The notes under the pieces: generated by a model
The model's database searches: none
What the model saw: the letters and a program-made list of their open reading frames with translations, nothing else
Told to the model about the DNA's origin: nothing
In this document: positions 309 through 26,136 of the stretch, one piece after another
How the letters are laid out: each line of letters opens with the position of its first letter
Position numbering within the stretch: position 1 is the stretch's first letter
Made by a program: the position numbers and the translations under genes
Virus record (IMG/VR): IMGVR_UViG_3300046007_007028
Coordinates: 8,440-72,439 of that record
Origin: a virus
DNA: 64,000 nucleotides
Direction: 5' to 3' (one strand)

Positions 309-316
309 CAAATATA
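309..316 (-). promoter_or_regulatory. Bacteroidota-type -7 box TATATTTG for ssb, with upstream TCGA box at 348-351
   Basis: Matches TAnnTTTG; repeat partner at 369-372. Confidence 0.7.
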
Positions 317-361
317 CCACCCCGCAGGGATGGGTGCAACAGGGTTTTCGATGGAATAGCG

Positions 362-931
362 TTATTTCCGGATGAAGTCAAAGGGTACGTATCCATCCTT
401 CTGATCTGGAAAAACCATCGCCGGCATAAAAAAAATCTCAGCCTCGAAATCGCAGTACATTGGCACAACGCAAATGCCTTTGTTTGGGGAAAAGATTCGC
501 AAAGAACCCATTTTTGCCCCTACTGACCTCAAGCCCCTTGCAAGAATGTTTGGCTCTATTCCAACCCATTCAATCGGCTGCTGCACCATATTCTCCGGCT
601 TTACAACGGCCCTGTAGTCCGGAAACTTCACATCCCATTCCGACCGGATTTCCAGCTTGCCGTATGTGGTTACGACCATCGCAGTTTCATTCTCCAGCAC
701 AAAGTCAATGCAGTCATCCGAACACCAGAACTTCCATGTTTTTCGATGAATCATCATTCCGTTGATTTTAGCCAGAATCTCATCCGGAATCATCTCCAGT
801 TTGACTTTGACCAAAACATGAGCGTCCGTCGCAACGGCATATTCGCCGTCAATGAACACGCAATTATAGGCTGCCAATACTTTTACGTTTGAGCAAGCCA
901 GATGCAGAGGTGGTAGATTCAATTTTTTCAT
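362..931 (-). CDS. Short DNA polymerase III beta-clamp-like protein
   Basis: AVATDAHVL (cf. VATDGHRL), KFPDYRAVV (cf. FPDYxRVIP) and C-terminal FFMPAM (cf. VMPM); only 189 aa. Confidence 0.6.
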   Translation of the reverse strand: MKKLNLPPLHLACSNVKVLAAYNCVFIDGEYAVATDAHVLVKVKLEMIPDEILAKINGMMIHRKTWKFWCSDDCIDFVLENETAMVVTTYGKLEIRSEWDVKFPDYRAVVKPENMVQQPIEWVGIEPNILARGLRSVGAKMGSLRIFSPNKGICVVPMYCDFEAEIFFMPAMVFPDQKDGYVPFDFIRK

Positions 932-987
932 GCTACAAAATGAACATGTCTATACCTGTGGTCAAAAAGCGTTCGATGAGCAAACAA

Positions 988-1017
988 AAAAGCCCGACCA
1001 ATTACGGACGGGCTTTT
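988..1017. terminator. Intrinsic terminator, potentially bidirectional
   Basis: aaaagcccg-N12-cgggctttt flanked by A/T tracts. Confidence 0.7.
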
Positions 1018-1035
1018 GAATGGGAAAAGGGGAAC

Positions 1036-1350
1036 CTATTTGCCTTTCAGCTCTGGCTTGCCAGCAACAGGGTTCAACGAAACCGCTTGCTGGGTATAAA
1101 CCGAAATGAACAACTTCTTCAATACCTGATCGCCCCTTTCCAGCTTGATTACGCAATCCCCGAAAGACAAAGCCTTAATCTTTGCCTTCGTGCCCTCTGC
1201 CACAATATCGAGAACGCTGTCGTTGTTAAAGAAAAACTCAACAGGCTCCGTTTCTTCCGGCAGATTGATTGTGAATGCCTCCCCAACAAGAACATCAACC
1301 TTCTCAACATCAAAGGCCGTTACGTTGGGGAAAATGAAATTGGCCTTCAT
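1036..1350 (-). CDS. Small Ig-like beta-sandwich protein
   Basis: All-beta pattern (NNDSVLDI...AKIKALSFGDCVI) resembling Big_2-type domains. Confidence 0.5.
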   Translation of the reverse strand: MKANFIFPNVTAFDVEKVDVLVGEAFTINLPEETEPVEFFFNNDSVLDIVAEGTKAKIKALSFGDCVIKLERGDQVLKKLFISVYTQQAVSLNPVAGKPELKGK

Positions 1351-1352
1351 GA

Positions 1353-1670
1353 TTACTTAGGCTCAGGCGTCCCAACGGTGATTCCCAAAGAAGCCGCAAG
1401 CGGAGTGGTCACCGCCAAAGTAATGGTTTCGCCAATCTCAACAATGCCTTCTCCAAGGTCAGCGTCAGCAACAACGGCAAATTCGGAAATGCCAGGCTCG
1501 CCAGAAATCAAGGTTGCAGAGAGTCCGTCTTCGGAAACCTCAAGGGTTGCGTCGCCAGAAATTTTTGTCCATACCGGATTCTCAACCTGTGCTGGGTTTT
1601 CAGCAGCGGTCTTAGGGGAAAGAACAACAGGAATTTTTTGCTCGGAAGTAATGCTAATTACAGATGCCAT
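1353..1670 (-). CDS. Small Ig-like protein, possible virion decoration
   Basis: PVWTKISGD...SEDGLSATL...V.ADADLGEG all-beta pattern; start placed at MASVISI. Confidence 0.5.
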   Translation of the reverse strand: MASVISITSEQKIPVVLSPKTAAENPAQVENPVWTKISGDATLEVSEDGLSATLISGEPGISEFAVVADADLGEGIVEIGETITLAVTTPLAASLGITVGTPEPK

Positions 1671-1770
1671 GTTTTTGCGTGTGTTAAAAGATTTGGTCCG
1701 CAAAATAACCCTTCCACTATTACCCCTAAAATATTTTTATGGCATTGTTTTTAGGTGCGGATTGGATATA

Positions 1771-1802
1771 AAAAAACCGCCTGAATCTCAAGCGGCCTTT
1801 TA
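1771..1802 (-). terminator. Intrinsic terminator
   Basis: Minus strand aaaggccgcttgagattcaggcggtttttt; near-identical to terminator at 24681-24711. Confidence 0.7.
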
Positions 1803-1833
1803 AAAACAATCATAAACCCTAAGCAATCGTTTG

Positions 1834-2052
1834 TCAAAATAAATCCTTCTCCATCCCCGCCTTCAACCCCTCCCACTTGTCCCCGTACACAATCTTGCCG
1901 ATTTCATCGAGGTTGCGGGATAGCTCTGCGAAGAGTTCTTTTGCCGTCTTGCCGTCCACAAACATATCATTCAAAGTTTTATCCGGCTTGAATAAAGTGT
2001 GACAGAGGAACCCAAAGTGGGCCGTGAATATGTCTTTTTGGTCTGGGGTCAT
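1834..2052 (-). CDS. Hypothetical protein
   Basis: 72-aa ORF coupled by ATGA overlap to upstream gene. Confidence 0.7.
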   Translation of the reverse strand: MTPDQKDIFTAHFGFLCHTLFKPDKTLNDMFVDGKTAKELFAELSRNLDEIGKIVYGDKWEGLKAGMEKDLF

Positions 2053-2276
2053 TCTCCTTTCAAAACTTGTTTACAAAAATCAATTACTTTTTTCTCAATG
2101 TCCCTTTGAGCCTTCTCCAGACTCCGCCACTTTTTGCCTTCGGGGAAGAAATGAAAAGTGGGGCTGGTATGGGCGTGCCAATACCCTTGTTCCTGATGAA
2201 TTTGAAAAAGAACCGTTTGGCCCTGCATAAGCCAAAATTCGGGGTAGGGTTGCAAGGTCATGTCGAGCCAAGTCAT
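2049..2276 (-). CDS. Hypothetical protein
   Basis: 75-aa ORF with overlapping start/stop coupling. Confidence 0.65.
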   Translation of the reverse strand: MTWLDMTLQPYPEFWLMQGQTVLFQIHQEQGYWHAHTSPTFHFFPEGKKWRSLEKAQRDIEKKVIDFCKQVLKGE

Positions 2277-2671
2277 AACTCAATCTTTTTCGGGAATGGG
2301 TTTTCGAGTGCGATATTTTGCCAATTCGTTGCTTCGTTACTTATATTTTGAACTCTAAAGCCCCTTTCTTTTGTTTTCCCAATAAAATAACCGCAAGCAG
2401 TTACTTTCGGCTTTTCAACCTCCCCATCCCAGCAATAAACAAAAGTGCCCGGTTCCGGCAATACTTCCGGCCTACGGACCTCGTAGGGTTCGGGGAAGAG
2501 GGTTGGGACGCACTTAGAAGAAATAGCCCCGTTCTCATTATAAGAGAAAAATTCTCCTATAAAAAATACATGGGTTCGATATTCTTTAATTTCTTTCACC
2601 TCCCCTTCCACCCCAGGAAACAGGGCCTCGTCGTAAACCTTTTGGCCGACATAGAATTTTGTGTGTTCCAT
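2273..2671 (-). CDS. Hypothetical protein (leaderless start MEHTKFYVGQKV)
   Basis: TAGGTTTG box at 2677-2684, 5 nt before ATG; the longer track ORF runs through the ncRNA. Confidence 0.7.
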   Translation of the reverse strand: MEHTKFYVGQKVYDEALFPGVEGEVKEIKEYRTHVFFIGEFFSYNENGAISSKCVPTLFPEPYEVRRPEVLPEPGTFVYCWDGEVEKPKVTACGYFIGKTKERGFRVQNISNEATNWQNIALENPFPKKIEL

Positions 2672-2744
2672 GTGAGCAAACCTACCACCTGTCCGGAAAT
2701 CCCGGACAACTGTTTCGATGGATGTATCAATTTCCCCGATAAAC

Positions 2745-2875
2745 AAAAAACGCCCCCAGTGGAAGCGTCGTTTGCTCGTTTTCAAACAGTATGAATCTAT
2801 AAGAACGCTTGCCTTTCGGCATTGTAGGCCACGTCGTCGACAACGTAAGCCCGGCACCACCTCCGAAAAGGTTCG
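2745..2875 (-). ncRNA. Putative stand-alone structured small RNA (~130 nt)
   Basis: Own -7 box TACATTTG (2879-2886), UUCG, UCGA and GAAA-capped hairpins, terminator cgcttcc-act-gggggcg-tttttt. Confidence 0.6.
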
Positions 2876-2950
2876 AGGCAAATGTAGCACATCAAATCTG
2901 AAATCAATTACCCCCATTCGACGAAACGACGGGAATGCTCGATGGGTGGG

Positions 2951-3373
2951 TTATACTTCTTTGATTGAAATGCCATGCACCTGCTTCATCAGTTTTCGCT
3001 TGGCAATATAGGTGCTGAGTTTTTTTGTTGCCTCAGACTTAACATCTTCCACCACCAGTTCCCCAGTTGCTTGTATTCGGTACACAAAATCGGCAAAATA
3101 GGACATTTTGCGTTCACCCTTTTGTGCCGGGACCAGCACAAACTCAACCTGTCGCTCAGGCAAAGTTATTTCGCCAATTTTCACCAAAAGCATAAGCTCC
3201 CGATACCGATTGTACTCTTTTTTGGAGTCAAAAGTCATGCCGTCATACAAGACTTTTTCGTTGTTATACTTCGCTCGCCTTGCCTTGCCCTTCTTAACTT
3301 CAAGCAGATGGCTGTTTTCCGGCCTTTTGGCGGCCTCTGACTTGCGAAACGACTCAATGTCCCATCCTTTCAT
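2951..3373 (-). CDS. DUF1064 family putative endonuclease
   Basis: KYNNEKV..DG.TFDSKKE..RY, YFADFVY, VVEDVK motifs. Confidence 0.85.
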   Translation of the reverse strand: MKGWDIESFRKSEAAKRPENSHLLEVKKGKARRAKYNNEKVLYDGMTFDSKKEYNRYRELMLLVKIGEITLPERQVEFVLVPAQKGERKMSYFADFVYRIQATGELVVEDVKSEATKKLSTYIAKRKLMKQVHGISIKEV

Positions 3374-4025
3374 TTGCGTTCGTTGTAGGGGCTAATAGAG
3401 GCTTTCGTTGGGCAGCGGGATGATATTTGGCTCCAATTGGCTGTACTTCAATTTTCCAAATATACTTGCCTTTATACATTCTGTTGTCTTTTATGCAGTT
3501 CATTACTGTTCTTTGGTTTGTTCCCGTTTGTTTATACAATGATTTAAAGGATTCGTATTCCTCTAATAAAACCCCGCTAGAATCGTATTTAAAGACTTTA
3601 GTTCTTCTGCGAGTTTTTTCTAGGCTTTTTGCATTTTCTCTCCCATGCAGATACCCTAGTTGCCTCATTCTTTCTGCCGCCTTTTTTCTGGAATTATCCA
3701 TAATCCCCGTATCAAAAGCGTGTCTCATATTTTCGGACAAGGTAGTCCACTCCAAATTGCTTGCGCAATTATTCTTTTTGTTGCCGTCTTTGTGATTGAC
3801 CTGTGGCTTGTTTTCTGGGTTCGGAATAAAATGCAACGCCACTAATCTATGAATTGTTCCTCTTTTGTTTTTGCCGCCAACCCACATATTAAAATATTCA
3901 TACCCGTTTTTGCCAAAGTTTGTTTTTGAACTTTTTTGATTTGTTGATCTAAAGTTGCCAAGGTCTGAAATTTCATAAAGACCGTTTGAGTTTTTTACAC
4001 TTACCCATTTTTCTTGCGTTTCCAT
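3354..4025 (-). CDS. NUMOD4-HNH homing endonuclease
   Basis: EKW...GLYEISDLGNFRS; HRLVALHFIPNPENKPQVNHKDGNKKNN..NLEW. Confidence 0.92.
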   Translation of the reverse strand: METQEKWVSVKNSNGLYEISDLGNFRSTNQKSSKTNFGKNGYEYFNMWVGGKNKRGTIHRLVALHFIPNPENKPQVNHKDGNKKNNCASNLEWTTLSENMRHAFDTGIMDNSRKKAAERMRQLGYLHGRENAKSLEKTRRRTKVFKYDSSGVLLEEYESFKSLYKQTGTNQRTVMNCIKDNRMYKGKYIWKIEVQPIGAKYHPAAQRKPLLAPTTNANERMGH

Positions 4026-4029
4026 AAAA

Positions 4030-4134
4030 TGAAAGACCCCGAACTCAAACGCTGCTACACATTCAAATCCGAGGTCAGTTGTTGGTTGTTAAACCAATAT
4101 TTTTTTGCTGGTAGCAGACAGCAATACAAAGGTA
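4030..4134 (-). promoter_or_regulatory. Promoter TACCTTTG plus kissing-loop leader 1
   Basis: Hairpin A loop CUGCUAC (4111-4117) is complementary to hairpin B loop GUAGCAG (4052-4058). Confidence 0.7.
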
Positions 4135-4135
4135 A

Positions 4136-4528
4136 TTAATCTCCTGAATATTCATTGGGAAGTTTTAAAAGAATTGAATACTCCGAGAGTGCCCACGTCC
4201 GGATTGCTTCGTGATAATCTTCGGCTTGTAAGGTGTTAAAGTCTTTTGTTGAACCACCAAACACCATTAGTTCGCCTGTTATTTTATTCAACCGCTCCAC
4301 AGGGTTAAATCGCTTTTTCAGCTCTTCGTGCATCTCCGATGGAAAATATCCGAAACATTCTGCCAATGGGTTGACAATGCAGGCGAAGTAATAGCCCCGT
4401 TGCGAATCACTGCGCTTTTTGCGCCACTTTTTGATCTGAATGACATTGCGGCCTTTCAGGGCTTTGAGGACAGCGTAGAGCCGGCGCTTGTCCGGCTCTT
4501 TGTCGAAATCAATGATTAAATCGACCAT
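4136..4528 (-). CDS. NinB/Orf-like recombination protein
   Basis: KKRSDSQRGYYFA...MHEELK...STKDFN pattern of NinB family. Confidence 0.6.
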   Translation of the reverse strand: MVDLIIDFDKEPDKRRLYAVLKALKGRNVIQIKKWRKKRSDSQRGYYFACIVNPLAECFGYFPSEMHEELKKRFNPVERLNKITGELMVFGGSTKDFNTLQAEDYHEAIRTWALSEYSILLKLPNEYSGD

Positions 4529-5033
4529 GGTGGTATGGAGTAATGATGTTTTTAGCCCCGTGTTCAAACCGGGCTTGTTTTGAAAGAGACAAAGCGTATT
4601 CCATGGCTGGATGATTGTCGGAACCCATATTCCCAAAGTACATAATCCCAAACTTGCCGCGTATCTCATCAGCAAAAGCCCAGCCTTCCGCGCTCCTTAC
4701 GTCTCCGTTGTTCCCTTCTCTCCAAAACAGGAAATTGGGGTTTTCGCTTGGCGGCCCGACAAAAAGCAAGAGGAACTTTCCGCTTTCGTCGACGAAGTCC
4801 CGGTGCTTTGAGTCCTTTTCAAAGTTTGATGGCTTTACCTCTCCGAAGGCGTCGTACCTGGGGAAGTAGAAGTCTGGTAGATACAAATCTCCACTCGAAA
4901 GGGCATAGCCCTCAAGTTCGTACTCCCATTTTACCCCAAGGGCGTCAAAATAGATTGCCCAACGGGCCTCGGTCCTACTTCGGAAACGGTAGCCCCTGTA
5001 TTGCGTTTCGATGGCTTTGATTTGCTGTTCCAT
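4509..5033 (-). CDS. PD-(D/E)xK nuclease
   Basis: FRSRTEARWA.YFD...WEYE...YLPDFY...GEVK. Confidence 0.8.
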   Translation of the reverse strand: MEQQIKAIETQYRGYRFRSRTEARWAIYFDALGVKWEYELEGYALSSGDLYLPDFYFPRYDAFGEVKPSNFEKDSKHRDFVDESGKFLLLFVGPPSENPNFLFWREGNNGDVRSAEGWAFADEIRGKFGIMYFGNMGSDNHPAMEYALSLSKQARFEHGAKNIITPYHHGRFNH

Positions 5034-5038
5034 GGTTT

Positions 5039-7012
5039 TTAGAAAGGTGCTTTTTCGTTGGAATTAAAATCAATCTTGCCCATATCGGGCACCACGGGCA
5101 TAAATAGCGGCTGCGATTCAAAATTCAAGGTTCGCTCCATGGCACTGACCGCGTTCATGGCACTGACTTTTTGCTCCGGAATGCTTACGTCGTAGTCCTC
5201 GTGTTCAAACTTGAAGGATATGCCACGTAGCTTCATTGCGTCTGCCATCGGGTCCCGGTCCCCATCAAAAATGTACCTACGCTTGCTATTGTGGTAATGA
5301 AACTCCGAATACCCAAGCTTGCCAACCACGTATTGCCGTTTGATTTTTTTAGCATGGAACTCGCAAAGGGTGTTGTTTGGTTCTTCCTGGTGTAATGGTC
5401 GGTGGTAAATCAGAATGTTATCCATCTTGTTTGCCCACATAGACCCTCCGGTGATGGAATAGTGGTCAGGGCACGGGAAATTGTTCCTCCCGTTCTTTTG
5501 CGGCTTTGTTGGGTGGGCCACAATAATGACCGAAATGTTGTTGTCCTGAGCAAACCGGGTCATGTTGCCCAAAAATCCCTCCAAATACCGGTGATCCTGA
5601 TCCCCGGAATACTGGTGGGCAAGTTGATTGTAGGGGTCAATAATGCAGGCGCAAACCTTTTCCTTCATAATCACCTGAAGAAAAATGCCCTTTATGTGGT
5701 CGGGAGTAGGCATTGCTTCTTTGGGGTAGACAAAGAAGATGTATTGGTTTAAGAACATGATTGCGGCCCTGTATTCGTCCTCCGTAGGTCCTCCGGGCAC
5801 GTTTGGCGTACAAATCTTGCCAATCAACATCTCGGCAAGGTGGTGGTAAAACTCCTCGGCGGGGCAATCTTCGGGCGGGAACAGGGCAAATTTGCGCTTA
5901 TACAAAATCACCTGCATAAGCATATACCACTTCAAAAACTGGCTTTTACCGTAGTTGGCATACCCCGACAAAAGCGTAAGTTCCTTCATTTTGAGCTTAA
6001 AGTGGCGGTCTACTTCCGGAACATTTATCCCCGAAACCGATTCAAAGCCGTTTCTCCAAATGTTGACGGCATCCTCAATAACATCTTCGGCATAAATTAC
6101 GTCTTTGATTTTCTCTTGAAGGTCAATTTCATCCGGAATTTGCTGTACGGGGGCCTCCGCGCCAGTTGTTTTGTTTTGAAGGCGGTTGTTTACAAAGTGG
6201 CAGGTTCCAAAGTCTTTTTGAGCCACCTTCCAAGCCTTTGCCGTAATGTCATTGGCTATTTCGGGGTCAGAGGGCAGGTAGTTGACGGTGATGTAGTAGG
6301 CAACGTCCGATTCTGGCAGCCCAAACCGGCAGCAGGAGCAGGCAAGGCGGAAAAGAAAGTTGTTTCTGTTGCCGTCGACGTATTGCTGACTTCGCTGATT
6401 CCAGATCAAAAGGTTCTTGAATATCTTTTCCTGCTCGGTAATGGGCTCGCCCATCATCATTTGCGACACTTGTTCTGGCACTTTATACACCTTCACCTTT
6501 GTGAACACCTTGGCGTTTGGATTCACGTAAATCTTGCTGTCGCAGCTTTCGTAGCACACCCTTGCCACATTGCGGCACATCTTGTCCATATCAGGGAAAA
6601 CGGACAAAAGGGCGTCAAAATGGGCTGTATGCTTGTCTGGGTCGGAAATCTTAACCAAAGCTTTGAGCCCGTTGCCGGACGGGGACAGCCAAAGGGCGTA
6701 AATAATTTCATTTCGCTGAAGCTCCTGTTTTTTTTCTTCCAGAGCTGGGCCTTCAAGGCGGTCAAAATCAAGGCAAATAAGCCCTGAGTGCTTTTTCACC
6801 AACAAATTCTTGCGTCTACCCTCAAAAACGCCTGAAAACATGACGCAGGGCAGCCGGCGCTTTATTTCGTTTTGCTCAACCTTGGTTTTTGCCTCCCTCA
6901 CCCGCTTTATGAGCGGCCAGCTTTTGCCGGTTTTTATGCGCTCGAAAGCTTCTTCGGGCGTTATGGTGTGGCTTACGGCGTCCTCGACCCCGTTGTAGTA
7001 GATGGAAATCAT
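5039..7012 (-). CDS. Primase-helicase (VirE_N/BT4734-like + PriCT + DnaB/Twinkle-type helicase)
   Basis: HSGLICLDFD, SPSGNGLK, GNRNNFLF, Walker A SGYANYGKS, IIDPYN, IIVAHP, GGSMWANKMDN. Confidence 0.88.
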   Translation of the reverse strand: MISIYYNGVEDAVSHTITPEEAFERIKTGKSWPLIKRVREAKTKVEQNEIKRRLPCVMFSGVFEGRRKNLLVKKHSGLICLDFDRLEGPALEEKKQELQRNEIIYALWLSPSGNGLKALVKISDPDKHTAHFDALLSVFPDMDKMCRNVARVCYESCDSKIYVNPNAKVFTKVKVYKVPEQVSQMMMGEPITEQEKIFKNLLIWNQRSQQYVDGNRNNFLFRLACSCCRFGLPESDVAYYITVNYLPSDPEIANDITAKAWKVAQKDFGTCHFVNNRLQNKTTGAEAPVQQIPDEIDLQEKIKDVIYAEDVIEDAVNIWRNGFESVSGINVPEVDRHFKLKMKELTLLSGYANYGKSQFLKWYMLMQVILYKRKFALFPPEDCPAEEFYHHLAEMLIGKICTPNVPGGPTEDEYRAAIMFLNQYIFFVYPKEAMPTPDHIKGIFLQVIMKEKVCACIIDPYNQLAHQYSGDQDHRYLEGFLGNMTRFAQDNNISVIIVAHPTKPQKNGRNNFPCPDHYSITGGSMWANKMDNILIYHRPLHQEEPNNTLCEFHAKKIKRQYVVGKLGYSEFHYHNSKRRYIFDGDRDPMADAMKLRGISFKFEHEDYDVSIPEQKVSAMNAVSAMERTLNFESQPLFMPVVPDMGKIDFNSNEKAPF

Positions 7013-7016
7013 GAGT

Positions 7017-8050: not shown

Positions 8051-8098
8051 TGTTGTAAACTTTTGTTAACGGAAACGTTTCTTTTAGGAGCCAAAAAA

Positions 8099-10130: not shown

Positions 10131-10331
10131 TCAGGATTGAGGGGGAAACGGGAAGGTTTGGAGGGGAGGAAACCCACCTTCCTTTCGCCCAATTTCACCC
10201 TCAAAACGCCTAACCTCTTCATTTTCACCCCTATTTCTTTGGTCCTTCGATTCGCGTCAATCAACCCTCAAAACGCTTGTTTGGTCGAATGAATAGCGAA
10301 TATTTGCTTTTTTTGTACTTTAAATTGCGTT

Positions 10332-10514
10332 ATGGAAAATCAAATCAAAGCAAAGAAGGGGAGAAAAAAACTTCCGGAAGGGGAGCGAAAAGTTCCGATT
10401 CGCATATACGTTTGTGAAAAAGATGTAAAAGATTTCGGCGGGGAACTCGCTGTAATGGAGCAACTTATAAATTATTTTAATTTCTTGCTAAAAAAACGCT
10501 TGGAAATTAAATAA
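10332..10514 (+). CDS. Small basic DNA-binding-like protein
   Basis: KKGRKKLPEGERKVPIRIYV (GR.K/RHH-like pattern). Confidence 0.65.
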   Translation: MENQIKAKKGRKKLPEGERKVPIRIYVCEKDVKDFGGELAVMEQLINYFNFLLKKRLEIK

Positions 10515-17244: not shown

Positions 17245-17259
17245 TCAACAAAAACAAAA

Positions 17260-18151: not shown

Positions 18152-18258
18152 AACGAGAACTGCTTGAAAAATTCAAAGGATGGGCTTGTATAGCCCTTCT
18201 TTTTGCCTTTTCGATTTACGTCTGGGCACAGTTGATAGCGACTTTAATTTTGAAATAA
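18148..18258 (+). CDS. Tiny single-TM protein
   Basis: MKRELLEKFKGWACIALLFAFSIYVWAQLIATLILK. Confidence 0.5.
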   Translation: MKRELLEKFKGWACIALLFAFSIYVWAQLIATLILK

Positions 18259-18259
18259 A

Positions 18260-18508
18260 ATGTTTGACAACGACACCCCACCAACCTACCCTGTCACCGT
18301 CCAGGACTACATTGATAACAATTATCAAAAGCCTTGGTCTGATGTTTTAAGCTGGTTTTTGACAAGCTATTTGGAAGAGGAATGCGAAACCAAAACAGAC
18401 CTGCTGATTTATTTGGGATATGCAGATGCCCCGGAATCATTGATTGATATGGTTCGGAATGATACGTTCCCGGAGCAACTAACCGAAGAATACGAGGGGT
18501 TGGTCTAA
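18260..18508 (+). CDS. Acidic hypothetical protein
   Basis: 82 aa, D/E-rich. Confidence 0.65.
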   Translation: MFDNDTPPTYPVTVQDYIDNNYQKPWSDVLSWFLTSYLEEECETKTDLLIYLGYADAPESLIDMVRNDTFPEQLTEEYEGLV

Positions 18509-18618
18509 GATTTTTATTCACCCGACAAAACATCATTTACTTTGAAAAGTACAATCAAACAAGCGTTGCGGCTGCTTATCCTTGCCGCTATCATTTACAT
18601 CTCATTTTTTTAAAACCT

Positions 18619-19485
18619 ATGCAATTACAGAAAGCAACCCGGAAGAAGACGAAGCTACGGCTAAATCTTTCGGCCCCTTCAGGTGCGGGAAAGACCTATT
18701 CAGCCCTTCTTATGGCCAAAGGATTGGTCGGGGATTGGGACAAAATTGCCGTTATTGATACCGAAAACGGTTCGGCATCTCTGTACGAACACCTCGGCCC
18801 GTTCAACGTCATTGACCTTGCCCCACCATTTTCCCCGGAGCGATACATACAAGCCATTGACGCTTGTGTTGCCGCTGGGATGGAGTGCATTATCATTGAC
18901 TCCAGTTCACACGAATGGAGCGGCCCCGGAGGGTGTCTGGAGTCAAACGACGCACTTGCCGCTGCAAAGTTTAAAGGAAACAATTGGGCCGCCTGGAACG
19001 AAACGACGCCCCGCCACGAACGCTTTGTGAGCAAGGTGCTTCACTGCGACGCTCACGTAATTACCTGCACCCGTTCCAAGATGGAGACCGTTCAGGAAGG
19101 GGGAAAGATAAAGAAGTTGGGTATGAAGGACATCCAAAGGGAAAACTGGGAGTACGAATTAACCGTATCGCTATCAATTGATAGAGATACCCACATGGCG
19201 GTCCCAAGCAAGGACCGTACGCAACTGTTTGAGGGCACAGCTCCATTTGTCATCACCGAAGAAACCGGTAAACTGATAAAGGCATGGTGCGAAACCGGCG
19301 TGGTGGACCCGGTCAATGAGTTCCGGGACAAGTTGCGCAAGGTTATTGACAACCCGCTTATCACTCCAGAGGAACGGGCTAAGTGGGAGAACTGGATGCC
19401 GTCTGGCACGGCAGAAACCCTTCAGGGACAGATTGCAAAAGCACAGGAAATGATTAACCAACGCACCAATGAACCTCAACCGTGA
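18619..19485 (+). CDS. AAA_24 / Sak4-like recombination ATPase
   Basis: APSGAGKTYSAL, IDTENGSASLY, IIDSSSHEW. Confidence 0.88.
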   Translation: MQLQKATRKKTKLRLNLSAPSGAGKTYSALLMAKGLVGDWDKIAVIDTENGSASLYEHLGPFNVIDLAPPFSPERYIQAIDACVAAGMECIIIDSSSHEWSGPGGCLESNDALAAAKFKGNNWAAWNETTPRHERFVSKVLHCDAHVITCTRSKMETVQEGGKIKKLGMKDIQRENWEYELTVSLSIDRDTHMAVPSKDRTQLFEGTAPFVITEETGKLIKAWCETGVVDPVNEFRDKLRKVIDNPLITPEERAKWENWMPSGTAETLQGQIAKAQEMINQRTNEPQP

Positions 19486-19657: not shown

Positions 19658-20166
19658 ATTTATTCAACATTACACACGAACGCAAGCTGCTTATGCAGCA
19701 GTTGGAAGCCGCAGACGGGGAGGCGTCAGAGGAGCTTCTGGAAGAACTTGCAATCAATCGGTCAAACTTTGAAGAAAAGGCCGAAGGATACGCCTACATG
19801 ATGCGCAAACTCGAAACGGATGTGAATGCCGTCAAAAGCGAAATCGACCGCCTGACGGCCCTAAAAACGGCAAAAGAAAGGGCATACGAACGCCTTGAAA
19901 AGACTTTGCTTGATGCCGTTGTTCAATACGGGGAGAAAGGCAAGGACGACGTGGCAAGGGCCGAGGTTGGGACTTTCCGGTTTTCAACCCGTCGCAATCC
20001 CGCTTCGGTTGAGATTTTGGATGAAGAGGCTATTCCAGAGGAGTACAAGGTGAGCAAGACGACGGTGAGCGTAAGCAAGACGACGATCAAAAACGCCTTG
20101 TCTTTGGGGCAGTCCGTTCCGGGGGCGCAGATGAAGGAGGGGGACTTGAGGCTGGTTGTGAAGTAA
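19654..20166 (+). CDS. Siphovirus Gp157 family protein
   Basis: EEKAEGYA...EIDRL..K...RRNP.SV.ILDE..IP.EY...V.GA. Confidence 0.85.
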   Translation: MNLFNITHERKLLMQQLEAADGEASEELLEELAINRSNFEEKAEGYAYMMRKLETDVNAVKSEIDRLTALKTAKERAYERLEKTLLDAVVQYGEKGKDDVARAEVGTFRFSTRRNPASVEILDEEAIPEEYKVSKTTVSVSKTTIKNALSLGQSVPGAQMKEGDLRLVVK

Positions 20167-20185
20167 AAAAATGTTTTTACATTTG

Positions 20186-20640
20186 CAGCGGATAGAAAAC
20201 CAAGCTGAACCGGTTTATTGCCCAACCAACCCCTCATAGGGCAAAAGTGTGCATCCTAATTACCGGTTCAGCCATAGTTTAGCAATAAGCTATGCGGTTT
20301 TTGGGGTGCACACTTTTGTTTTGCCCCTCTTTGGTTTTGACTTTCTACCATAGTCCAAAGACAAAAAGAAAGGCCGTTTGATCCGGCTGGGAGTAATCCT
20401 GAAAACTCGACCACACACAGGCTTGCGATTAAGTCCTGCTCTGACCCAAGGTGTCAACAGGCAACTGGTGCCGGAAGGTAGTAAGTCTGATGAACGAAAC
20501 ACCCAAAGCTGTTAAAGCTGAAGTTAATAAGAATTGGGACAGGACGGAAGTGGTGGTTTGGGTTGAAGTGTTAATAGGAGACACTTAAATCTTGGTACAT
20601 GGGGAACCTATACACCAGGATAAAAACCTTCCTATGATTA
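20186..20640 (+). ncRNA. Large structured RNA / leader (~450 nt) including kissing-loop element 3
   Basis: TACATTTG promoter at 20178-20185, no credible ORF, many local and long-range helices. Confidence 0.65.
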
Positions 20641-20654
20641 AAAACCAATAATTT

Positions 20655-20975
20655 ATGCTACTCCACACAATCGAACGAGGCAAGTATGCGAGGGTGGTCG
20701 CTGAAAGGGTGGTTTACATTGAAGCATCCGGTCAGGACCAAACAACCCTGCACATGACAGACAAACGGATGATTGCGGTACGTGGTGCATTGGGATTGAT
20801 TGCGGCCAAATTCCCGACCTTTTCTCAGGCTGCCAAATATTGCTATGTGAATCCGGACCATGTTTATTCCGTTCGGGTAATTGGTATGAGGGTTCATATT
20901 AAGTTTGGGAATGGGGAGAAGCTGGAGGTGGGCCGGAGCAAAAAATTCTACAAACAATTTTTGTCGTCCCTTTGA
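20655..20975 (+). CDS. Stand-alone LytTR-like DNA-binding protein
   Basis: VVYIEASGQ...TLH...L..I...F.Q..K.CYVNPDHV...LEVGRS, matching LytTR I.YIEA / F.R.HRSY.VN / L.VSR. Confidence 0.75.
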   Translation: MLLHTIERGKYARVVAERVVYIEASGQDQTTLHMTDKRMIAVRGALGLIAAKFPTFSQAAKYCYVNPDHVYSVRVIGMRVHIKFGNGEKLEVGRSKKFYKQFLSSL

Positions 20976-21029
20976 GGGGTTTGGTCGAAGAATTTATATC
21001 TGATTGAGAGGGTGAAATATTTTTGAAAC

Positions 21030-21290
21030 ATGGAAGCAACAAAACCAACAAAACAACAAATCAACGCTGCGGCACTGGAGGTGATTGCTCGTATTTCTGA
21101 AGGTAAGGAACGTGAGAGGCTGGAGAGGGAGGTAGGGGAGGTTCTAAATAAACCAAGAAACATAATTGGAAATGCTTTATGGAATAACGATAATCTAGCA
21201 TTTTCTTTTTGGCCTACTTGGATAGACTGTTGTAATTCAAATGGATACCTTGTCGCCACCTTCAAACTCAAATCCCGCAAAACCGTTTAA
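21030..21290 (+). CDS. Hypothetical protein, leaderless
   Basis: TATTTTTG box at 21018-21025, 4 nt before ATG. Confidence 0.65.
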   Translation: MEATKPTKQQINAAALEVIARISEGKERERLEREVGEVLNKPRNIIGNALWNNDNLAFSFWPTWIDCCNSNGYLVATFKLKSRKTV

Positions 21291-21323
21291 GAACATCCAA
21301 AACAAAACTTTAACAAAAAACAA

Positions 21324-21527
21324 ATGGAAGCAAAAGAATTTTACGACAAAAGATTAAAAGAAGATGGCACTATTGGTAGTGTTCAGCTTATGGAAGAGTA
21401 TGCAAAACACATTATTGAAATAAATTTTTGCGATGGAATCTCAATTGAATTTAATAAGCTGTCAGTAGAAGATTTAAAACGTATGCATAGGGCGGTAAGC
21501 TTATGTGTCATGTGGGTCAACACTTAA
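21324..21527 (+). CDS. Hypothetical protein
   Basis: 67 aa. Confidence 0.6.
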   Translation: MEAKEFYDKRLKEDGTIGSVQLMEEYAKHIIEINFCDGISIEFNKLSVEDLKRMHRAVSLCVMWVNT

Positions 21528-21548
21528 TTACTTAACCAAACCATTCAA

Positions 21549-22052
21549 ATGATCTTCCTGCAAACCTCCGCCACGACCTTCCACCAGATTGATGCTGGGG
21601 AGGTGGTATTTATTAACACAACAATCAATACAATCTTGCACAAGGATAATATTATCAATTATTCCGATGACTTTGAGGGCAGGATTGTTCAGGAATTGGT
21701 TCGGGCCAATCCAATGATTTCTAAAGTGAACGAATCGGAGTATCTGAATCGGAACAAGATTGACCGGATTGAAAGGATTGGATACGACTACCATGCCTAC
21801 ATTTCCGGAAGTCCATTTAGACTCGACCCCAACTGCCTTCTGGTCCACCTTACATTCAAAAAAAGCTATGTGAAAACAGCAAAGCAATACATCAATAACT
21901 TGGACAACCAGGGCATCATTGATTCAATAATCCTTGGTCCGGGAACCGTGGAACACAAAATACGGAGGATTGCAAAAGAGGACATTGGCGAAACGGTCAA
22001 TACCTACTACATCAACAAAAGGAAGAGGGAATTGAAAGCGAAAAACAAATAA
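21549..22052 (+). CDS. Divergent LytTR-like protein with C-terminal extension
   Basis: QIDAGEVVFI...SKVNESEYLNRNKIDRI resembles LytTR pattern. Confidence 0.5.
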   Translation: MIFLQTSATTFHQIDAGEVVFINTTINTILHKDNIINYSDDFEGRIVQELVRANPMISKVNESEYLNRNKIDRIERIGYDYHAYISGSPFRLDPNCLLVHLTFKKSYVKTAKQYINNLDNQGIIDSIILGPGTVEHKIRRIAKEDIGETVNTYYINKRKRELKAKNK

Positions 22053-22056
22053 GAGC

Positions 22057-22317
22057 ATGAAAACCAAAAACATCCGGGACTTTGTAATCGTCCCAACAAC
22101 GCCCGAAGAGGCGCAAAAGGTAGCAGATCGGCTGGTGGAGATGGGGGAGCCTGTATTTGAGCCGGAGGAGTTTGCTAAATGTTTTAATCGTTTCCGATGG
22201 GTGACGTTTGATGGGGATGATTGGGTCCAAAATAAGCCAAATTTTGAAAACCGCCCCCGCATCTCAGCAGCCGATTTTTTGGCGGGGGATACTCAAAAGA
22301 TTTTGGAGGTGGAGTAA
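22057..22317 (+). CDS. Hypothetical protein
   Basis: 86 aa. Confidence 0.65.
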   Translation: MKTKNIRDFVIVPTTPEEAQKVADRLVEMGEPVFEPEEFAKCFNRFRWVTFDGDDWVQNKPNFENRPRISAADFLAGDTQKILEVE

Positions 22318-22382
22318 GTATTCAACCAAAACCAATCCAGAGCCGTAAAAAGCAACAAAATAAAAACCTTTAATTTTACGAC

Positions 22383-23639
22383 ATGAAAAACCTCTTTCTC
22401 CTCGCAGCCTTCCTGATGGTATTGGGAAGCTGCACACGCAAACTTATCACGCCACAAACCGACGAATTGGTTGTAACCTCCGACGAAGTTCCTGGACCAC
22501 AAGAACTGTCAATGTTCCGCACCGCAAGTGAACCGGATTTCTGGGAACCAACTTACCGAAGCTACCGGATTGTTCCGTTCTACATCGAAGTTGATTCAAT
22601 CTACAACGCTCACTGGCGACCTTTTACCGAAGACACGGTAAGAGCCAGATTTGCCAGGATTGCATGGAACATGGAACGCCAGACGGGACTAAGGTTTACA
22701 ATTAGCCAAATCAAAATCCTAACCCGCCACGACATTGTAAGCCGTCAGACAAACGGAAATAATATGCTGTTTCAGTTTTCATCAACGGTTCCAAGGGTAG
22801 GCAACAACTTTATGCTAAGGATCTCAGGACGTTCTGGATTAGGTGGTTCGGCCTTCATATCCAGAGGAAGCCTGACAACTGCACCATACGCCATTTCTGG
22901 CTTCGGCAAAGCGATTGCAGGAGGGTTTGATAAGCCCGGAAACGACGAGTACGCCATTGGCCACGAAATCCTGCATAACTTGGGAATCTCACATTCCCAT
23001 AACTGTTGCGAGTGGTACACCAAGGACGGCAGACCATTGGGCAGACTTGATTCAGCAGCAGCCGGGGAAACAACTTGTTCACCTGTTCCGATCCGTTGTA
23101 ACAGGACGACCATACGCCAATCGGGAGGCTGGAATAGTTATGCTCATATTTGGGGACAGGCAACCTACACCCTGCATCCATCGGTATTGGCTAAGCTACA
23201 TCGGGCCGTGTTTTATTCAAGCCTTCAGACTTATACCCCGACACAACCACCATTACCACCCGTTACTACTTGCAGCACTCAGGTAGCCCACACATCAGCC
23301 ACAGGAAGTCATCCGGGCTTTGATAAGGCATTGGATGGTATTGACAACACAAACGCTTCCAGATGGGTTGTAAATGCCCCACAAACAAGCCTGACCTTGA
23401 CCTACAACAATGCCAGCGTGGATTGCATCCGGATATGGACAGGGTACTTGTCTGGCTCAACATGGGGCAGCCCAATCAGGCAAGCAATCGTATCGGTAAA
23501 CGGCACTCAGTTATTAGCCGTTCCTGGTGCTTTGGAGATCAACATTCCGGTTAATCGGGCTGGGGTGAATACCATTAAGATTGATTTCTTTGCGTTGGAT
23601 AGCCATGTAAGAATTAGAGAGGTTAGGGTTTTGGATTAG
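22383..23639 (+). CDS. Lipoprotein zinc metallopeptidase (metzincin, M12-like) with C-terminal F5/8C-like domain
   Basis: Lipobox LGSC; HEILHNLGISH; Pro/Thr linker; KALDG...SRW...IREVRV. Confidence 0.8.
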   Translation: MKNLFLLAAFLMVLGSCTRKLITPQTDELVVTSDEVPGPQELSMFRTASEPDFWEPTYRSYRIVPFYIEVDSIYNAHWRPFTEDTVRARFARIAWNMERQTGLRFTISQIKILTRHDIVSRQTNGNNMLFQFSSTVPRVGNNFMLRISGRSGLGGSAFISRGSLTTAPYAISGFGKAIAGGFDKPGNDEYAIGHEILHNLGISHSHNCCEWYTKDGRPLGRLDSAAAGETTCSPVPIRCNRTTIRQSGGWNSYAHIWGQATYTLHPSVLAKLHRAVFYSSLQTYTPTQPPLPPVTTCSTQVAHTSATGSHPGFDKALDGIDNTNASRWVVNAPQTSLTLTYNNASVDCIRIWTGYLSGSTWGSPIRQAIVSVNGTQLLAVPGALEINIPVNRAGVNTIKIDFFALDSHVRIREVRVLD

Positions 23640-23642
23640 GTT

Positions 23643-23733
23643 GCATAAAGTTCCGCAGATAAGCGAAGGCACAAATAGCGTTGGCTTTAGCAAGGGATTT
23701 GGGCTTTTGCTTATGTGCTGTTAGCAGAAGTAC
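23643..23733 (+). repeat. attC-like imperfect palindrome
   Basis: gcagataagcgaaggc...gcttttgcttatgtgc stem ending in GTTAGCA. Confidence 0.55.
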
Positions 23734-23774
23734 GGTCAATTTTAAACGAATTTTTAACTTAAATAAATAACAAA

Positions 23775-24044
23775 ATGAAAGTAACAGTAACAGAGGATTT
23801 AGGTATCCAATTAGAAGAAGTTTTTAGCGGTTTAACTTTAAAAACCGAAAGTGGGGAAACAATGTCAATTTGTATGCGAGATAGTGGCTTTGAGTTTAAT
23901 TATCAAGGCGAGTGGTATTTTGCAAAAGAAGGATATGTTGAGCCATTTCACAAGTCAGTTAGAGATAACTATTTAGTTTCTGAATTGCAAAGACACGACC
24001 ATAATTTAGATGCAGATGCAATGCCTGTTAGTAACGGTCAGTAG
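23775..24044 (+). CDS. Hypothetical protein in cassette-like unit
   Basis: AT-rich ORF bracketed by inverted repeat 23720-23733 / 24044-24057. Confidence 0.75.
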   Translation: MKVTVTEDLGIQLEEVFSGLTLKTESGETMSICMRDSGFEFNYQGEWYFAKEGYVEPFHKSVRDNYLVSELQRHDHNLDADAMPVSNGQ

Positions 24045-24101
24045 TATTTCTGCTAACTCGTAAATATCCGCAATCAACCTAACCAACAAAACCAGCGAAA
24101 G

Positions 24102-24458
24102 ATGAACTACGAAAAGCTATTTAATTATTTCCATGAGCAACATGGGATAAGTCTGTTGCTAACAGATATGCAGGAGGTTGCCCGTATTGTTAAGGAAGTG
24201 GAAGAGCCGGGAAGCACGAAGCCAACTTGTCCGATAATTGACGTTTGTGGGTTTACTATTGACTTGCGAAAAGTTGAGCGTGTTACTCCGGTCGGTGGCG
24301 ATAAAAACCATTTGTCATATATGGTTTATTTTACAGGCGGCAATAAAATAGAAATTCCTCATGCACAGCAATTTGCCAACGGGAAGAAATTTGACCACAT
24401 GGAACGGGAAAAGTTTGTTGAATTATGGAAATCTTTTAATCTGAGTATCCATGCTTGA
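24102..24458 (+). CDS. Hypothetical protein
   Basis: 118 aa. Confidence 0.7.
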   Translation: MNYEKLFNYFHEQHGISLLLTDMQEVARIVKEVEEPGSTKPTCPIIDVCGFTIDLRKVERVTPVGGDKNHLSYMVYFTGGNKIEIPHAQQFANGKKFDHMEREKFVELWKSFNLSIHA

Positions 24459-24660
24459 AATCCTCATAACCGGCTTCCTTCTGTTTGTGGCTTATGTCAT
24501 CTATCACCACAACCGCTACACCTACGGCCACTGCAACGGCATACCGGCGCGGAAGCATTGGGCATCTGGAGTGGTTGAGATGAAGTTGGAGCAGGAATGG
24601 GTCGTGATGTCCCGGAAATATTGGAAGGAGTTTACAGCGTATAAAGACCTTGAAAAGTGA
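24451..24660 (+). CDS. Small N-anchored membrane protein
   Basis: N-terminal hydrophobic helix. Confidence 0.6.
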   Translation: MLEILITGFLLFVAYVIYHHNRYTYGHCNGIPARKHWASGVVEMKLEQEWVVMSRKYWKEFTAYKDLEK

Positions 24661-24680
24661 GAATTTGGTTAAATGACTGG

Positions 24681-24711
24681 AAAGGCCGCTTGAATTTTGA
24701 GCGGTTTTTTT
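24681..24711 (+). terminator. Intrinsic terminator between convergent units
   Basis: ccgcttga-attt-tgagcgg-ttttttt. Confidence 0.75.
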
Positions 24712-24723
24712 ATTTCCCTTCCA

Positions 24724-24933
24724 TTATTTCTCTGGCATATCCACCTTGTTATACTTGCTAACCAATCGCCTAAACTGGTCCACAAATTGACCTAAAATAT
24801 AGATCAGGATTGCATCGGTTGTGTCTATCTTCCCAAATTTGTAAAGCCATCCAACTCCAATAAGAAGCCCGACAAGGATTGCGCTTGTTAAAAGGAAGGA
24901 GATAAACTGAATTGTTCTTTGCCAATCCCACAT
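24724..24933 (-). CDS. Small 2-TM protein, holin candidate
   Basis: Two TMs, basic tail, own TATTTTTG box at 24938-24945, near endolysin. Confidence 0.5.
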   Translation of the reverse strand: MWDWQRTIQFISFLLTSAILVGLLIGVGWLYKFGKIDTTDAILIYILGQFVDQFRRLVSKYNKVDMPEK

Positions 24934-24948
24934 TCCACAAAAATATCT

Positions 24949-25079
24949 TATATTTGCATGGCTTCCAATAGGAAGCAACCAACGGACTAGGTTGGACAAG
25001 AAACTGGGAGAAATCCCATAACACGGCCCTGAATTGGCGTAGCTAGTCCCTGCGTTGATTTGGGGCTTTTGTTTTTAAG
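24949..25079 (+). promoter_or_regulatory. Promoter TATATTTG plus kissing-loop leader 2
   Basis: Loop GGACUAG (24984-24990) complementary to loop CUAGUCC (25043-25049). Confidence 0.72.
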
Positions 25080-25592
25080 ATGGATAAGTATTTAAAATTT
25101 GTTGAAGCAGGGCTAAGAGTTTCTAAGGATGGAGTAGTCTACGGCAAAAGAGGGAAAGAAAGAGTATTATTCACCAACAATTCAGGTTATTCAATAACCC
25201 ATTTTCTATATAAGGGGAATCCCATAAACGTCTTGGTGCATCGACTTGTCGCAATGGCATTTATCCAAAATCCATTGGGTCTTTCTCAGGTAAACCATAT
25301 CAACGGGATAAAATCCGACAATCGAGTGGAAAATTTAGAATGGTGCTCTGTGAGCCAAAACATACGTCACAGATTTTCATCTGGCATAACATCTTTGCAA
25401 TCGCAATCTCGTCCTTCTTTACAAAATGGAAGATGCAGGAAGGTGCACCAAATTAAAAATGGGGTAATTATTGATACATTCCCTTACATGGTGGCTGCCG
25501 CACAAGCTGTTGGCGGCACAGCCTCGTGCATTAGAAATGTTTGTGCTGGTAGGGCTTCATCGCACAAGGGCTTTCAATGGGAGTACGCTTGA
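25080..25592 (+). CDS. HNH homing endonuclease with NUMOD1-like C-terminus
   Basis: VHRLVAMAFIQNP...VNHINGIKSDNRVENLEW; I.NVC.GR...KGFQW. Confidence 0.92.
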   Translation: MDKYLKFVEAGLRVSKDGVVYGKRGKERVLFTNNSGYSITHFLYKGNPINVLVHRLVAMAFIQNPLGLSQVNHINGIKSDNRVENLEWCSVSQNIRHRFSSGITSLQSQSRPSLQNGRCRKVHQIKNGVIIDTFPYMVAAAQAVGGTASCIRNVCAGRASSHKGFQWEYA

Positions 25593-25622
25593 TCCTTTTG
25601 CCTGTTATGTCGGAGTTGAATT

Positions 25623-26066
25623 TCATGGCTTCACAATCAACAATCCTTTTGCATTTGGGACCCACCTTGAGTCTGCATGAAGCCATCGCGGGGTCGCAGA
25701 AATGTCCTCTACGGCCCTGATAGACGTTTTGGCAATTACCTCTTCCTGGTTATCCAAAAGCCACTTGTATAGCTCCTCAACAGTCATATCCGGACTATCA
25801 AAGTCGGTGGCGTTCATTTTGTAGGAATGCTGGCTCCACGGATTGAAAGACGGTGCGTCGGGCGTTCTCAGGCCCCGCCAGAAATGTACGGGGTTCTTGG
25901 TGTGCCAGTTGTTTACAACAAGGCGCACTCCTGTCCGGGTCCGGAGCCACTGCATTGCCTCAACTTGCTCCCTGACCAGAAACCACGTAGAATTTGCGCC
26001 CCACTTTTGATAGGTGGACCGGCTTACAAATTCTTGGATGTCAAAGTTGGTTGTGAGATTGCCCAT
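25623..26066 (-). CDS. Endolysin, peptidase M15 family
   Basis: NF...EF, GLR, SQH...ATD, WLHAD Zn-ligand pattern. Confidence 0.85.
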   Translation of the reverse strand: MGNLTTNFDIQEFVSRSTYQKWGANSTWFLVREQVEAMQWLRTRTGVRLVVNNWHTKNPVHFWRGLRTPDAPSFNPWSQHSYKMNATDFDSPDMTVEELYKWLLDNQEEVIAKTSIRAVEDISATPRWLHADSRWVPNAKGLLIVKP

Positions 26067-26136
26067 TAGTCCACAAAATAATGGGTTTGGTCGAAAACTG
26101 CAAAATGGATTTATTGGGAAGGGGTAGGTTTGGGGA

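Follow-up and report, generated by a model that had tools for sequence, protein, structure and literature searches.

Paired TCGA-centred boxes at Bacteroidota-type promoters of a phage that encodes a stand-alone LytTR protein: a candidate regulon

Results

Paired boxes at phage promoters

The stretch of DNA analysed here (the window, 64,000 nt) comprises bases 8440–72439 of a 72,439-bp virus record, IMGVR_UViG_3300046007_007028 (G000). It carries a set of promoters in which two 9-bp boxes stand at a fixed distance upstream of the −7 box, and a gene for a 106-amino-acid (aa) stand-alone LytTR domain protein, the open reading frame (ORF) ORF1 (20655–20975, plus strand), which is the proposed reader of the boxes. 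The first and last 750 nt of the record (genome 1–750 and 71690–72439, the latter being window 63251–64000) were identical at 729 of 750 positions in an ungapped comparison. This identity suggests that the contig probably closes on itself or bears terminal repeats, and that the genome is probably essentially complete at about 71.7 kb, above the 64% completeness estimate. Window positions 200–3200 were present in 24 lake-water metagenome runs, none of them listed as RNA, and a blastn search of GenBank phages with window 20000–27000 gave no DNA match. In Flavobacteria and Bacteroides, sigma-A promoters have the −7 box TAnnTTTG at −12 to −5, as given in the quoted part of PMC9723704. This motif was found 48 times in the window and 54 times in the whole genome, a frequency that would fit a Bacteroidota host.

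Each site was read on the sense strand as a distal 9-mer, a 12-nt spacer, a proximal 9-mer (consensus TTNRTCGAA) and a −7 box, and the distance to the −7 box was counted from the end of the proximal-box TCGA. Seven G000 promoters had a proximal TCGA ending 29–31 nt before a −7 box and a degenerate copy of the box exactly 21 nt upstream. Six of them lie inside the window, all at the places given in the original prediction, which had described at least six promoters of one geometry; a seventh was found about 2 kb before the window. The distal consensus was TTNRTCGNG-like, and with a period of 21 bp both boxes lie on the same face of the DNA.

Four of the sites are on the minus strand at the left of the window. 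The ssb promoter (288–376) has the distal box TTCATCCGG at 368–376, the proximal box TCCATCGAA at 347–355, a distance of 31 nt to the −7 box TATATTTG at 309–316, a TTG 20 nt before the −7 box and an ATG at 290; the ORF behind it encodes SSB (PF00436, E = 7e-27). The promoter of a 189-aa gene (929–1001) consists of TTGGTCGGG at 993–1001, CTCATCGAA at 972–980 and, at a distance of 29 nt, the −7 variant TCATTTTG at 936–943, with an ATG 4 nt past the box; PHROG matches of the 189-aa protein were weak, to RusA-like and processivity-factor families. The promoter of a 132-aa gene (2669–2743) has TTTATCGGG at 2735–2743, TCCATCGAA at 2714–2722 and, 30 nt on, the −7 box TAGGTTTG at 2677–2684. The real start of this gene, the ATG at 2671, is in frame with a longer ORF (2273–2917), and the promoter sits within the upstream part of that ORF. 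The fourth promoter (2879–2946) is built from CCCATCGAG at 2938–2946, TTCGTCGAA at 2917–2925 and, at 31 nt, the −7 box TACATTTG at 2879–2886. The short unit of about 130 nt behind it (2745–2872, minus strand) ends in a hairpin and a T-run and holds a 31-codon ORF from the ATG at 2822–2820; it may be a small RNA or a small-protein mRNA.

Two further sites are on the plus strand. The promoter right after ORF1 (20960–21032) has its distal box TTTGTCGTC at 20960–20968, within the 3′ end of ORF1, and its proximal box TTGGTCGAA at 20981–20989, followed at 29 nt by the −7 box TATTTTTG (21018–21025) and, 4 nt past the box, by the ATG at 21030; its position weight matrix (PWM) score was 21.9. The promoter of an operon of 62-, 56- and 84-aa genes (26066–26139; PWM 21.2) consists of TTAGTCCAC at 26066–26074, TTGGTCGAA at 26087–26095 and, at 30 nt, the −7 box TAGGTTTG at 26125–26132, again with an ATG 4 nt past the box (26137). 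The seventh site, on the minus strand at genome 6419 (about window −2020), reads TCGGTCGAG-12-TTTGTCGAA-29-TAATATTG, where the last element is a −7 variant; an ATG follows 4 nt on and opens a 256-aa gene that adjoins an N6/N4 DNA methylase gene.

The seven sites had an exact TAnnTTTG in five cases and a variant in two, and a TTG 18–22 nt upstream of it in four. In Bacteroidota sigma-A promoters, the distance from the −33 TTG to the −7 box is about 19–21 nt. Over 12 sites, a TTG at this distance from the −7 box, and 4–9 bp after the proximal box, was present in six. When the weak site at 10285 (described below) was counted, the −7 box departed from TAnnTTTG in three of eight G000 sites, as is expected of activator-dependent promoters. 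An ATG opening an ORF was seen 4–5 nt past seven exact TAnnTTTG boxes and two variant boxes, with such ATGs at window 931, 2671, 8257, 21030, 24933, 26137 and 50097 and at genome 6374. Many phage transcripts would then be leaderless, and five of the seven box promoters are of this type. The 12-nt spacer just past the distal box was often (G)GAAATAAC-like (window 356–367, 2723–2734 and 26075–26086; near 56829 and 58294 in the related record G006), which may reflect a longer distal site or an A-tract that favours bending. Among the contigs of four metagenome runs, which are short and were compared over 20 kb, one that diverges beside the ssb promoter carried a TTTCGAT where the proximal box would be, in a loose end of 30 letters; this is an anecdote.

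The TCGA ended 29–31 nt before 6 of the 54 TAnnTTTG boxes of the genome, and at any other spacing from 0 to 119 nt the count was at most 1. Across 300 first-order Markov genomes, 0.47 boxes on average, and 3 at most, had a TCGA at 29–31 nt, and the best three-offset window anywhere reached at most 5. In 7/7 sites, the proximal TCGA was preceded by RTC at a distance of exactly 21 nt (background 0.027), and each of the other offsets from 6 to 59 nt gave fewer than two. The enrichment that had been proposed relative to the −7 box was thus borne out, together with the partner at −21. Genome-wide, RTCS was present at −21 of an oriented TCGA in 17 of 326 cases against 4.5 expected, and 7 of the 17 were the box promoters. 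With the matrix made from the boxes, the seven sites scored 20.4–22.1 and the next best match in G000 scored 16.9 (window 50123–50152). In an unbiased search for dyads of 21-bp period, the periodicity of coding sequence dominated the output, and even the known sites were missed.

It is hardly credible that the pairs have no part in transcription and are origin iterons, TCGA methylation targets or products of chance. Iterons often have periods of about 21 bp, but they cluster in one place, whereas the pairs are dispersed over seven to eight places in sense orientation and at a fixed 29–31 nt from a −7 box. TCGA has the palindromic form of methylase targets, and DNA methylase genes lie in the same gene cluster in both G000 and G006; however, TCGA was not depleted in G000 (163 observed vs 179 expected), and these counts ruled out TCGA depletion or methylation as the explanation. 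Chance is excluded by the spacing, by the −21 partner and by the simulation for G006 given below.

The LytTR protein ORF1

ORF1 matched the Pfam family PF04397 with 28.3 bits (gathering cut-off 22.6) and E = 2.1e-6 over residues 13–96, covering profile positions 5–89 of 98. An AlphaFold2 model based on an alignment of eight family members had a predicted local distance difference test score (pLDDT) of 92.1 and a predicted template modelling score (pTM) of 0.83. When this model was used in Foldseek, the top 10 rows were all LytTR domains (AgrA, B. cereus 3d6w and ComE), with template modelling (TM) scores of 0.69–0.81. AgrA came out best by structure as well as by sequence; the comparison with its chain 4xqn_A gave TM scores of 0.75/0.81 and a root-mean-square deviation of 2.2, at a sequence identity to AgrA of 17–18%, and the ORF1-family profile matched AgrA chains in the PDB at E = 2.8e-6. 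The LytTR domain fills the protein (101–108 aligned columns in Foldseek; family members have 106–122 aa), and there is no receiver. Judged by profile match and predicted fold, ORF1 is a true receiver-less LytTR domain, and the first of the two stand-alone LytTR-like proteins named in the original prediction is thereby confirmed.

The family is tiny, with nine representatives at E ≤ 0.001 among 1.84 billion entries, on metagenomic contigs of up to about 70 kb. No match was obtained in GenBank phages by tblastn with the members P0014 and P0010, nor in bacterial genome contigs scanned with alignment A3 and P0014, and scans of metagenome contigs with ORF1 and alignment A1 confirmed no relative. 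Among the 53 ORFs of the window and genome that were scanned in Pfam, ORF1 was the only recognisable transcription factor, and most early ORFs matched no family. A six-frame search for sigma-70 r2 and r4_2 domains gave no match.

Upstream of ORF1, a −7 box TACATTTG at 20178–20185 (plus strand), with a TTG 19 nt upstream, heads a leader of about 470 nt. No RTCGAA box was found upstream of this −7 box, and it is presumed from its make-up to be an activator-independent early promoter of ORF1. The box pair at the 3′ end of ORF1 points to the next gene and not to ORF1's own promoter. Scans of the window for Rfam families and tRNAs found nothing, including none in the leader. Membrane inhibitors were looked for beside ORF1, and none of the four following ORFs nor the preceding ORF had a 19-residue Kyte–Doolittle mean >0.8. 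A 418-aa protein encoded 1.4 kb downstream of ORF1 (22383–23639) has an N-terminal lipoprotein-type signal segment and sub-threshold matches to M12 metallopeptidases; the protein is conserved (34–37% identity) next to the LytTR gene in all of G000, G006 and G007.

Boxes and LytTR genes in related records

Ten records (G000–G009) were compared; they were reached through different query proteins, and most are fragments. Among IMG/VR protein queries, the primase/helicase (L001–L003), the ORF2 alignment (L004, L005) and SSB (L015, L016) led to loci without boxes, the query P0010 led to L011 and L012, and alignment A3 returned two loci already found. ORF1 alone, P0012 and the 189-aa protein yielded no IMG/VR relatives. 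A six-frame search of the related records with PF04397 was negative, but it was rejected, as it failed to detect even ORF1 in G000, and the ORF1-family profile (A2) was used instead. This profile matched three of the ten records, G000, G006 and G007. The strict pattern RTCGA-N29-31-TANNTTTG had five occurrences in G000, three in G006 and none in the eight other records. Seven records (G001–G005, G008 and G009) had neither the ORF1 family nor the strict pattern.

G006 and G007 are both from IMG/VR; the LytTR protein of G006 (61.9 kb) was 47% identical to ORF1 and that of G007 (26.7 kb) 44%. G006 is syntenic with G000, has no similarity to it detectable by blastn, and encodes proteins that are 22–55% identical. 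In its DNA-metabolism cluster, four promoters had the same boxes and geometry as those of G000, and the cis-element is thus found together with the LytTR family in a second, very distant phage. They read TCCATCGGA-12-TTCGTCGAA-29-TATCTTTG before a DUF3127 gene, TTTGTGGGG-12-TTGGTCGAA-29-TAGTTTTG before a C5 DNA methylase gene, TTAGTCGAG-12-TTGGTCGAA-30-TATGTTTG before a 108-aa ORF and CTGGTCGAA-30-TAATATTG before a 75-aa ORF. A TCGA at 29–31 nt was present at 4 of the 63 −7 boxes of G006, one of the four being a poorer site (5527); in 200 simulations the count averaged 0.43 and never exceeded 2. On this comparison of sequences, the G006 boxes count as a phylogenetic footprint as well as a case of co-occurrence.

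In all three records with the LytTR family, the 3′ end of the LytTR gene contains or adjoins a box pair (G000 20960, G006 10037 and G007 7209), and a −7-like element that begins with TA follows the pair at a distance of 29 nt. The pair of G006 is TCCATCGTT-12-CTCATCGAA, followed by TAATTTTA, and that of G007 is TCCATCGTT-12-TTCGTCTAA, followed by TAAATTGC. The G006 and G007 pairs are in homologous coding sequence and are therefore not independent of each other.

ORF2

A second stand-alone LytTR protein had been proposed in ORF2 (167 aa; 21549–22052, plus strand), which belongs to the operon behind the 20960–21032 promoter and would thereby give feedback through two phage LytTR proteins. This is a very improbable arrangement. 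ORF2 was colinear with the ORF1 family over residues 10–118 in hhalign, with a probability of 34% and a pairwise E of 4e-4. It had no match in Pfam at E 0.1 and none to the ORF1-family profile at E 1, its AlphaFold model had a pLDDT of 43.7 and was unusable for fold comparison, and structure searches gave no Atlas lead above chance level and no relevant PDB match. Homologues of ORF2 were present in G001 and G002, which lack both boxes and the ORF1 family, and not in G006 and G007; in these records the distribution of ORF2 is the opposite of that of the boxes, G006 having boxes and no ORF2. The LytTR assignment is not supported for ORF2, and the proposed feedback falls with it. In the complete 39.6-kb record G002, the ORF2 homologue is in two overlapping pieces in different frames (L029/L030, 13305–13782), which suggests a frameshift or a sequencing error.

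Other occurrences of the boxes

A weak member of the set lies at 10281–10334 (plus strand). It has a perfect proximal box TTGGTCGAA and, as had been predicted for position 10285, no distal partner; its −7 box TTAAATTG, at a distance of 31 nt, is poor, and an ATG follows 4 nt later. The pair predicted at 18504/18483, before a gene whose product (18619–19485) matched the Pfam family AAA_24 (Sak4-like), was located at 18479–18544 (plus strand) as CTAACCGAA / TTGGTCTAA. With its TCTA and CCGA cores and the poor −7-like element TTACTTTG, it is a doubtful member. A TTCGA without a partner was seen 30 nt before the poor box TAATTTTG at 18245.

The further pair reported beside the ferritin promoter exists, at 50123–50131 and 50144–50152 (plus strand), as TTTGTCGAT-12-GTGGTCGAA, and with a PWM score of 16.9 it was the best non-promoter match. 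It overlaps positions −16 to −45 of the promoter of a minus-strand gene with a ferritin-like Pfam match, but it is inverted, facing away from that gene, and has no −7 box downstream. The pair was rejected as a conserved site, as it was not present before the G006 homologue of the ferritin-like gene. It possibly acts in repression.

Two other repeats of the same period lie in coding sequence. At 38650–38690, a pair of CGTCGATA copies identical at 8/9 positions, with a 21-nt period, is found in a structural gene on the strand opposite to coding, with no proper −7 box after it, and is probably a coding repeat. At 22440–22470 (minus strand), the pair TTCGTCGGA-12-TTCGTCGGT is antisense in the start of the 418-aa gene and is kept in L004 (4873) and L005 (11908). 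On the coding strand it corresponds to repeats of the peptide (T/S)DE; L004 and L005 have no LytTR, and the pair probably stands outside the regulon.

Some four-base palindromes are strongly avoided in G000, where CTAG was observed 6 times against 74.6 expected and GATC and CGCG are low too. CGCG was absent from G006 (0 vs 72 expected) and from G007 (0 vs 29). By these counts, the depletion in the three records looks like restriction avoidance.

Discussion

We put the probability at roughly 60% that the phage LytTR protein ORF1, made early, reads the paired boxes and activates the DNA-metabolism and accessory operons of G000. In such a scheme, ORF1 would be transcribed from the box-less host-type promoter TACATTTG at 20178 through the long leader, and two ORF1 molecules would occupy the two 9-bp direct repeats (9-12-9) on one helix face. 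With the −7 box set at −12 to −5, the distal box would fall at about −71 to −63 and the proximal box at about −50 to −42, so that 4–9 bp would separate the boxes from the −33 TTG downstream, at promoters that have one. ORF1 would recruit or stabilise the host sigma-A RNA polymerase at promoters that often have an imperfect −7 or −33 element. The predicted targets would be ssb, the 189-aa and 132-aa genes, the short transcript, the 256-aa gene by the DNA methylase gene outside the window, the operon behind ORF1 and the small-gene operon at 26137, and most of the transcripts would be leaderless. We infer the binding by ORF1, the timing and the direction of the effect; activation is favoured over repression because the boxes sit upstream of the core promoter.

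The build of the sites supports a LytTR reader because it is the build reported for such proteins. LytTR sites consist of two repeats of 9–11 nt with spacers of 11–13 nt in the part of PMC4847170 that is cited here, and the excerpted text of PMC6193735 gives for the receiver-less regulators of the HdrR/BrsR type 9-bp repeats with mostly 12-bp spacers, 4–11 bp upstream of the −35 element, and describes these proteins as activators. The 9-12-9 motif of G000 agrees with the predicted LytTR-type arrangement just upstream of a −35-type element, the −33-like TTG following 4–9 bp on where it is present.

Several points weigh against a role of ORF1 as the reader, and two alternative readers share in them. 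The co-occurrence of motif and LytTR genes that had been predicted was seen in G006, which has both, and in the seven records that have neither, but G007 has the LytTR family with 0 strict hits, with no TCGA at 29–31 nt from any of its 19 −7 boxes, and with a single moderate box pair (PWM 13.4). G007 is a fragment that lacks the cluster holding most of the G000 and G006 sites. The co-occurrence table is small (2/3 vs 0/7) and drawn from records that are mostly fragments and were found with differing query proteins. Also, the loop aligned with 'RCHNSF' of AgrA, the putative DNA-reading loop, differs between G000 (SQAAKYCY) and G006 (LRPLVSYL) despite the same boxes. Both G007 and the loop would be in line with a reading of the boxes by a host protein, for example one of the numerous Bacteroidota LytTR response regulators, which would couple the phage genes to a host signal and leave the phage LytTR protein to act elsewhere, for example by competition or mimicry; a 9-12-9 build suits any LytTR protein. 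We regard a host reader as unlikely, since, among the records compared, the boxes were found only in those with the phage LytTR family, and the regulator gene is directly followed by a box promoter in G000, in G006 and, in a weak form, in G007. The dependence of ssb on a signal-dependent host regulator would, in addition, be fragile.

Equally unlikely is a third reader, a phage DNA-binding protein of no known family, with the LytTR co-occurrence reflecting the shared ancestry of G000 and G006. ORFans make up most of the early ORFs, dozens of which have no Pfam family, and many genes co-occur in the two syntenic records, for example a 70-aa/74-aa pair with 46% identity in the same gene cluster; the 70-aa protein common to both has no Pfam match. 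A 21-bp period is, moreover, not specific to LytTR proteins, as AraC half-sites share it. Against such a protein stand the architecture of the site, which is specifically that of LytTR operators, the position of ORF1 as the sole recognisable transcription factor found, and the physical joining of the regulator gene to a target promoter in three records. We therefore continue to favour ORF1 as the activator.

HdrR/HdrM and BrsR/BrsM of Streptococcus mutans are among the closest known systems; the cited portion of PMC6193735 describes small receiver-less LytTR proteins and the same two 9-bp repeats about 12 bp apart near a −35-type element. ORF1 differs from them in having no adjacent gene for a membrane inhibitor, which is co-transcribed in the HdrRM type, and in lacking the repeats upstream of its own operon promoter that are found there, so that no positive autoregulation is evident. 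It is also phage-borne, and it would act on phage DNA-metabolism genes through Bacteroidota −33/−7 promoters. AgrA, ComE, PlnC and YpdB share the fold of ORF1 (TM 0.69–0.81; 3bs1, 4xqn, 4cbv) and have similar paired operators, as far as the quoted text of PMC4847170 goes. The TTNRTCGAA box is unlike the AgrA, YpdB and HdrR boxes quoted from PMC4847170 and PMC6193735. In contrast to the AgrA-type response regulators, ORF1 has neither a phosphorylatable receiver nor a kinase partner.

In phage T4, the activator MotA works with AsiA at a box held at a fixed distance from the −10 element, by sigma appropriation in which recognition of the −35 element is replaced at about −30. The proposed function of ORF1 resembles this in that a phage protein would redirect the host RNA polymerase to boxed promoters. 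It differs in that the fold is unrelated and that paired boxes lie upstream of a retained −33 element. The Pseudomonas phages Lu11, PMG1 and D3 have LytTR-domain genes, which the cited passages of PMC3901668 and PMC11945551 mention as potential homologues of AgrA with which a phage might 'listen in' to quorum sensing; these passages describe no binding sites or regulon, and the hosts are unrelated. A LytTR mention in the Bacteroidota phage paper PMC10013915 refers, in the part quoted, to a host gene. Searches of the full-text literature found no description of a phage LytTR regulon or operator. Within these searches, the claim of no described case stands for a regulon and has to be narrowed for the genes, as LytTR-domain genes had been noted, with no function given in the cited part of PMC3901668, in the three Pseudomonas phages.

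A wider interpretation, which we offer tentatively and at somewhat less than even odds, is that a lineage of uncultured freshwater Bacteroidota phages times its switch from early to middle expression with a minimal, signal-independent, one-domain LytTR activator. The timing would come from accumulation of the protein, the operators would be the TTNRTCGAA boxes at −50/−71, and the target units would be mostly leaderless. In addition, this protein may act as a repressor where inverted pairs cover core promoters, as at 50123–50152, or bind host LytTR operators in host takeover. If this is true, it would be the first phage developmental regulon under a LytTR protein.

The control of transcription in Bacteroidota phages is almost unexplored, and their hosts use unusual −33/−7 promoters and no Shine–Dalgarno sequence. 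The locus offers a complete, testable circuit, with a 106-aa regulator, a 30-bp operator and at least seven target promoters, together with four more in a relative dissimilar in DNA. If ORF1 binds the boxes, a function would be known for a phage LytTR protein for the first time, and the LytTR domain alone, with neither a receiver nor a membrane inhibitor, would prove sufficient for activation. The regulator and its promoters would then also form a compact, orthogonal pair on which genetic tools for Bacteroidota could be built.

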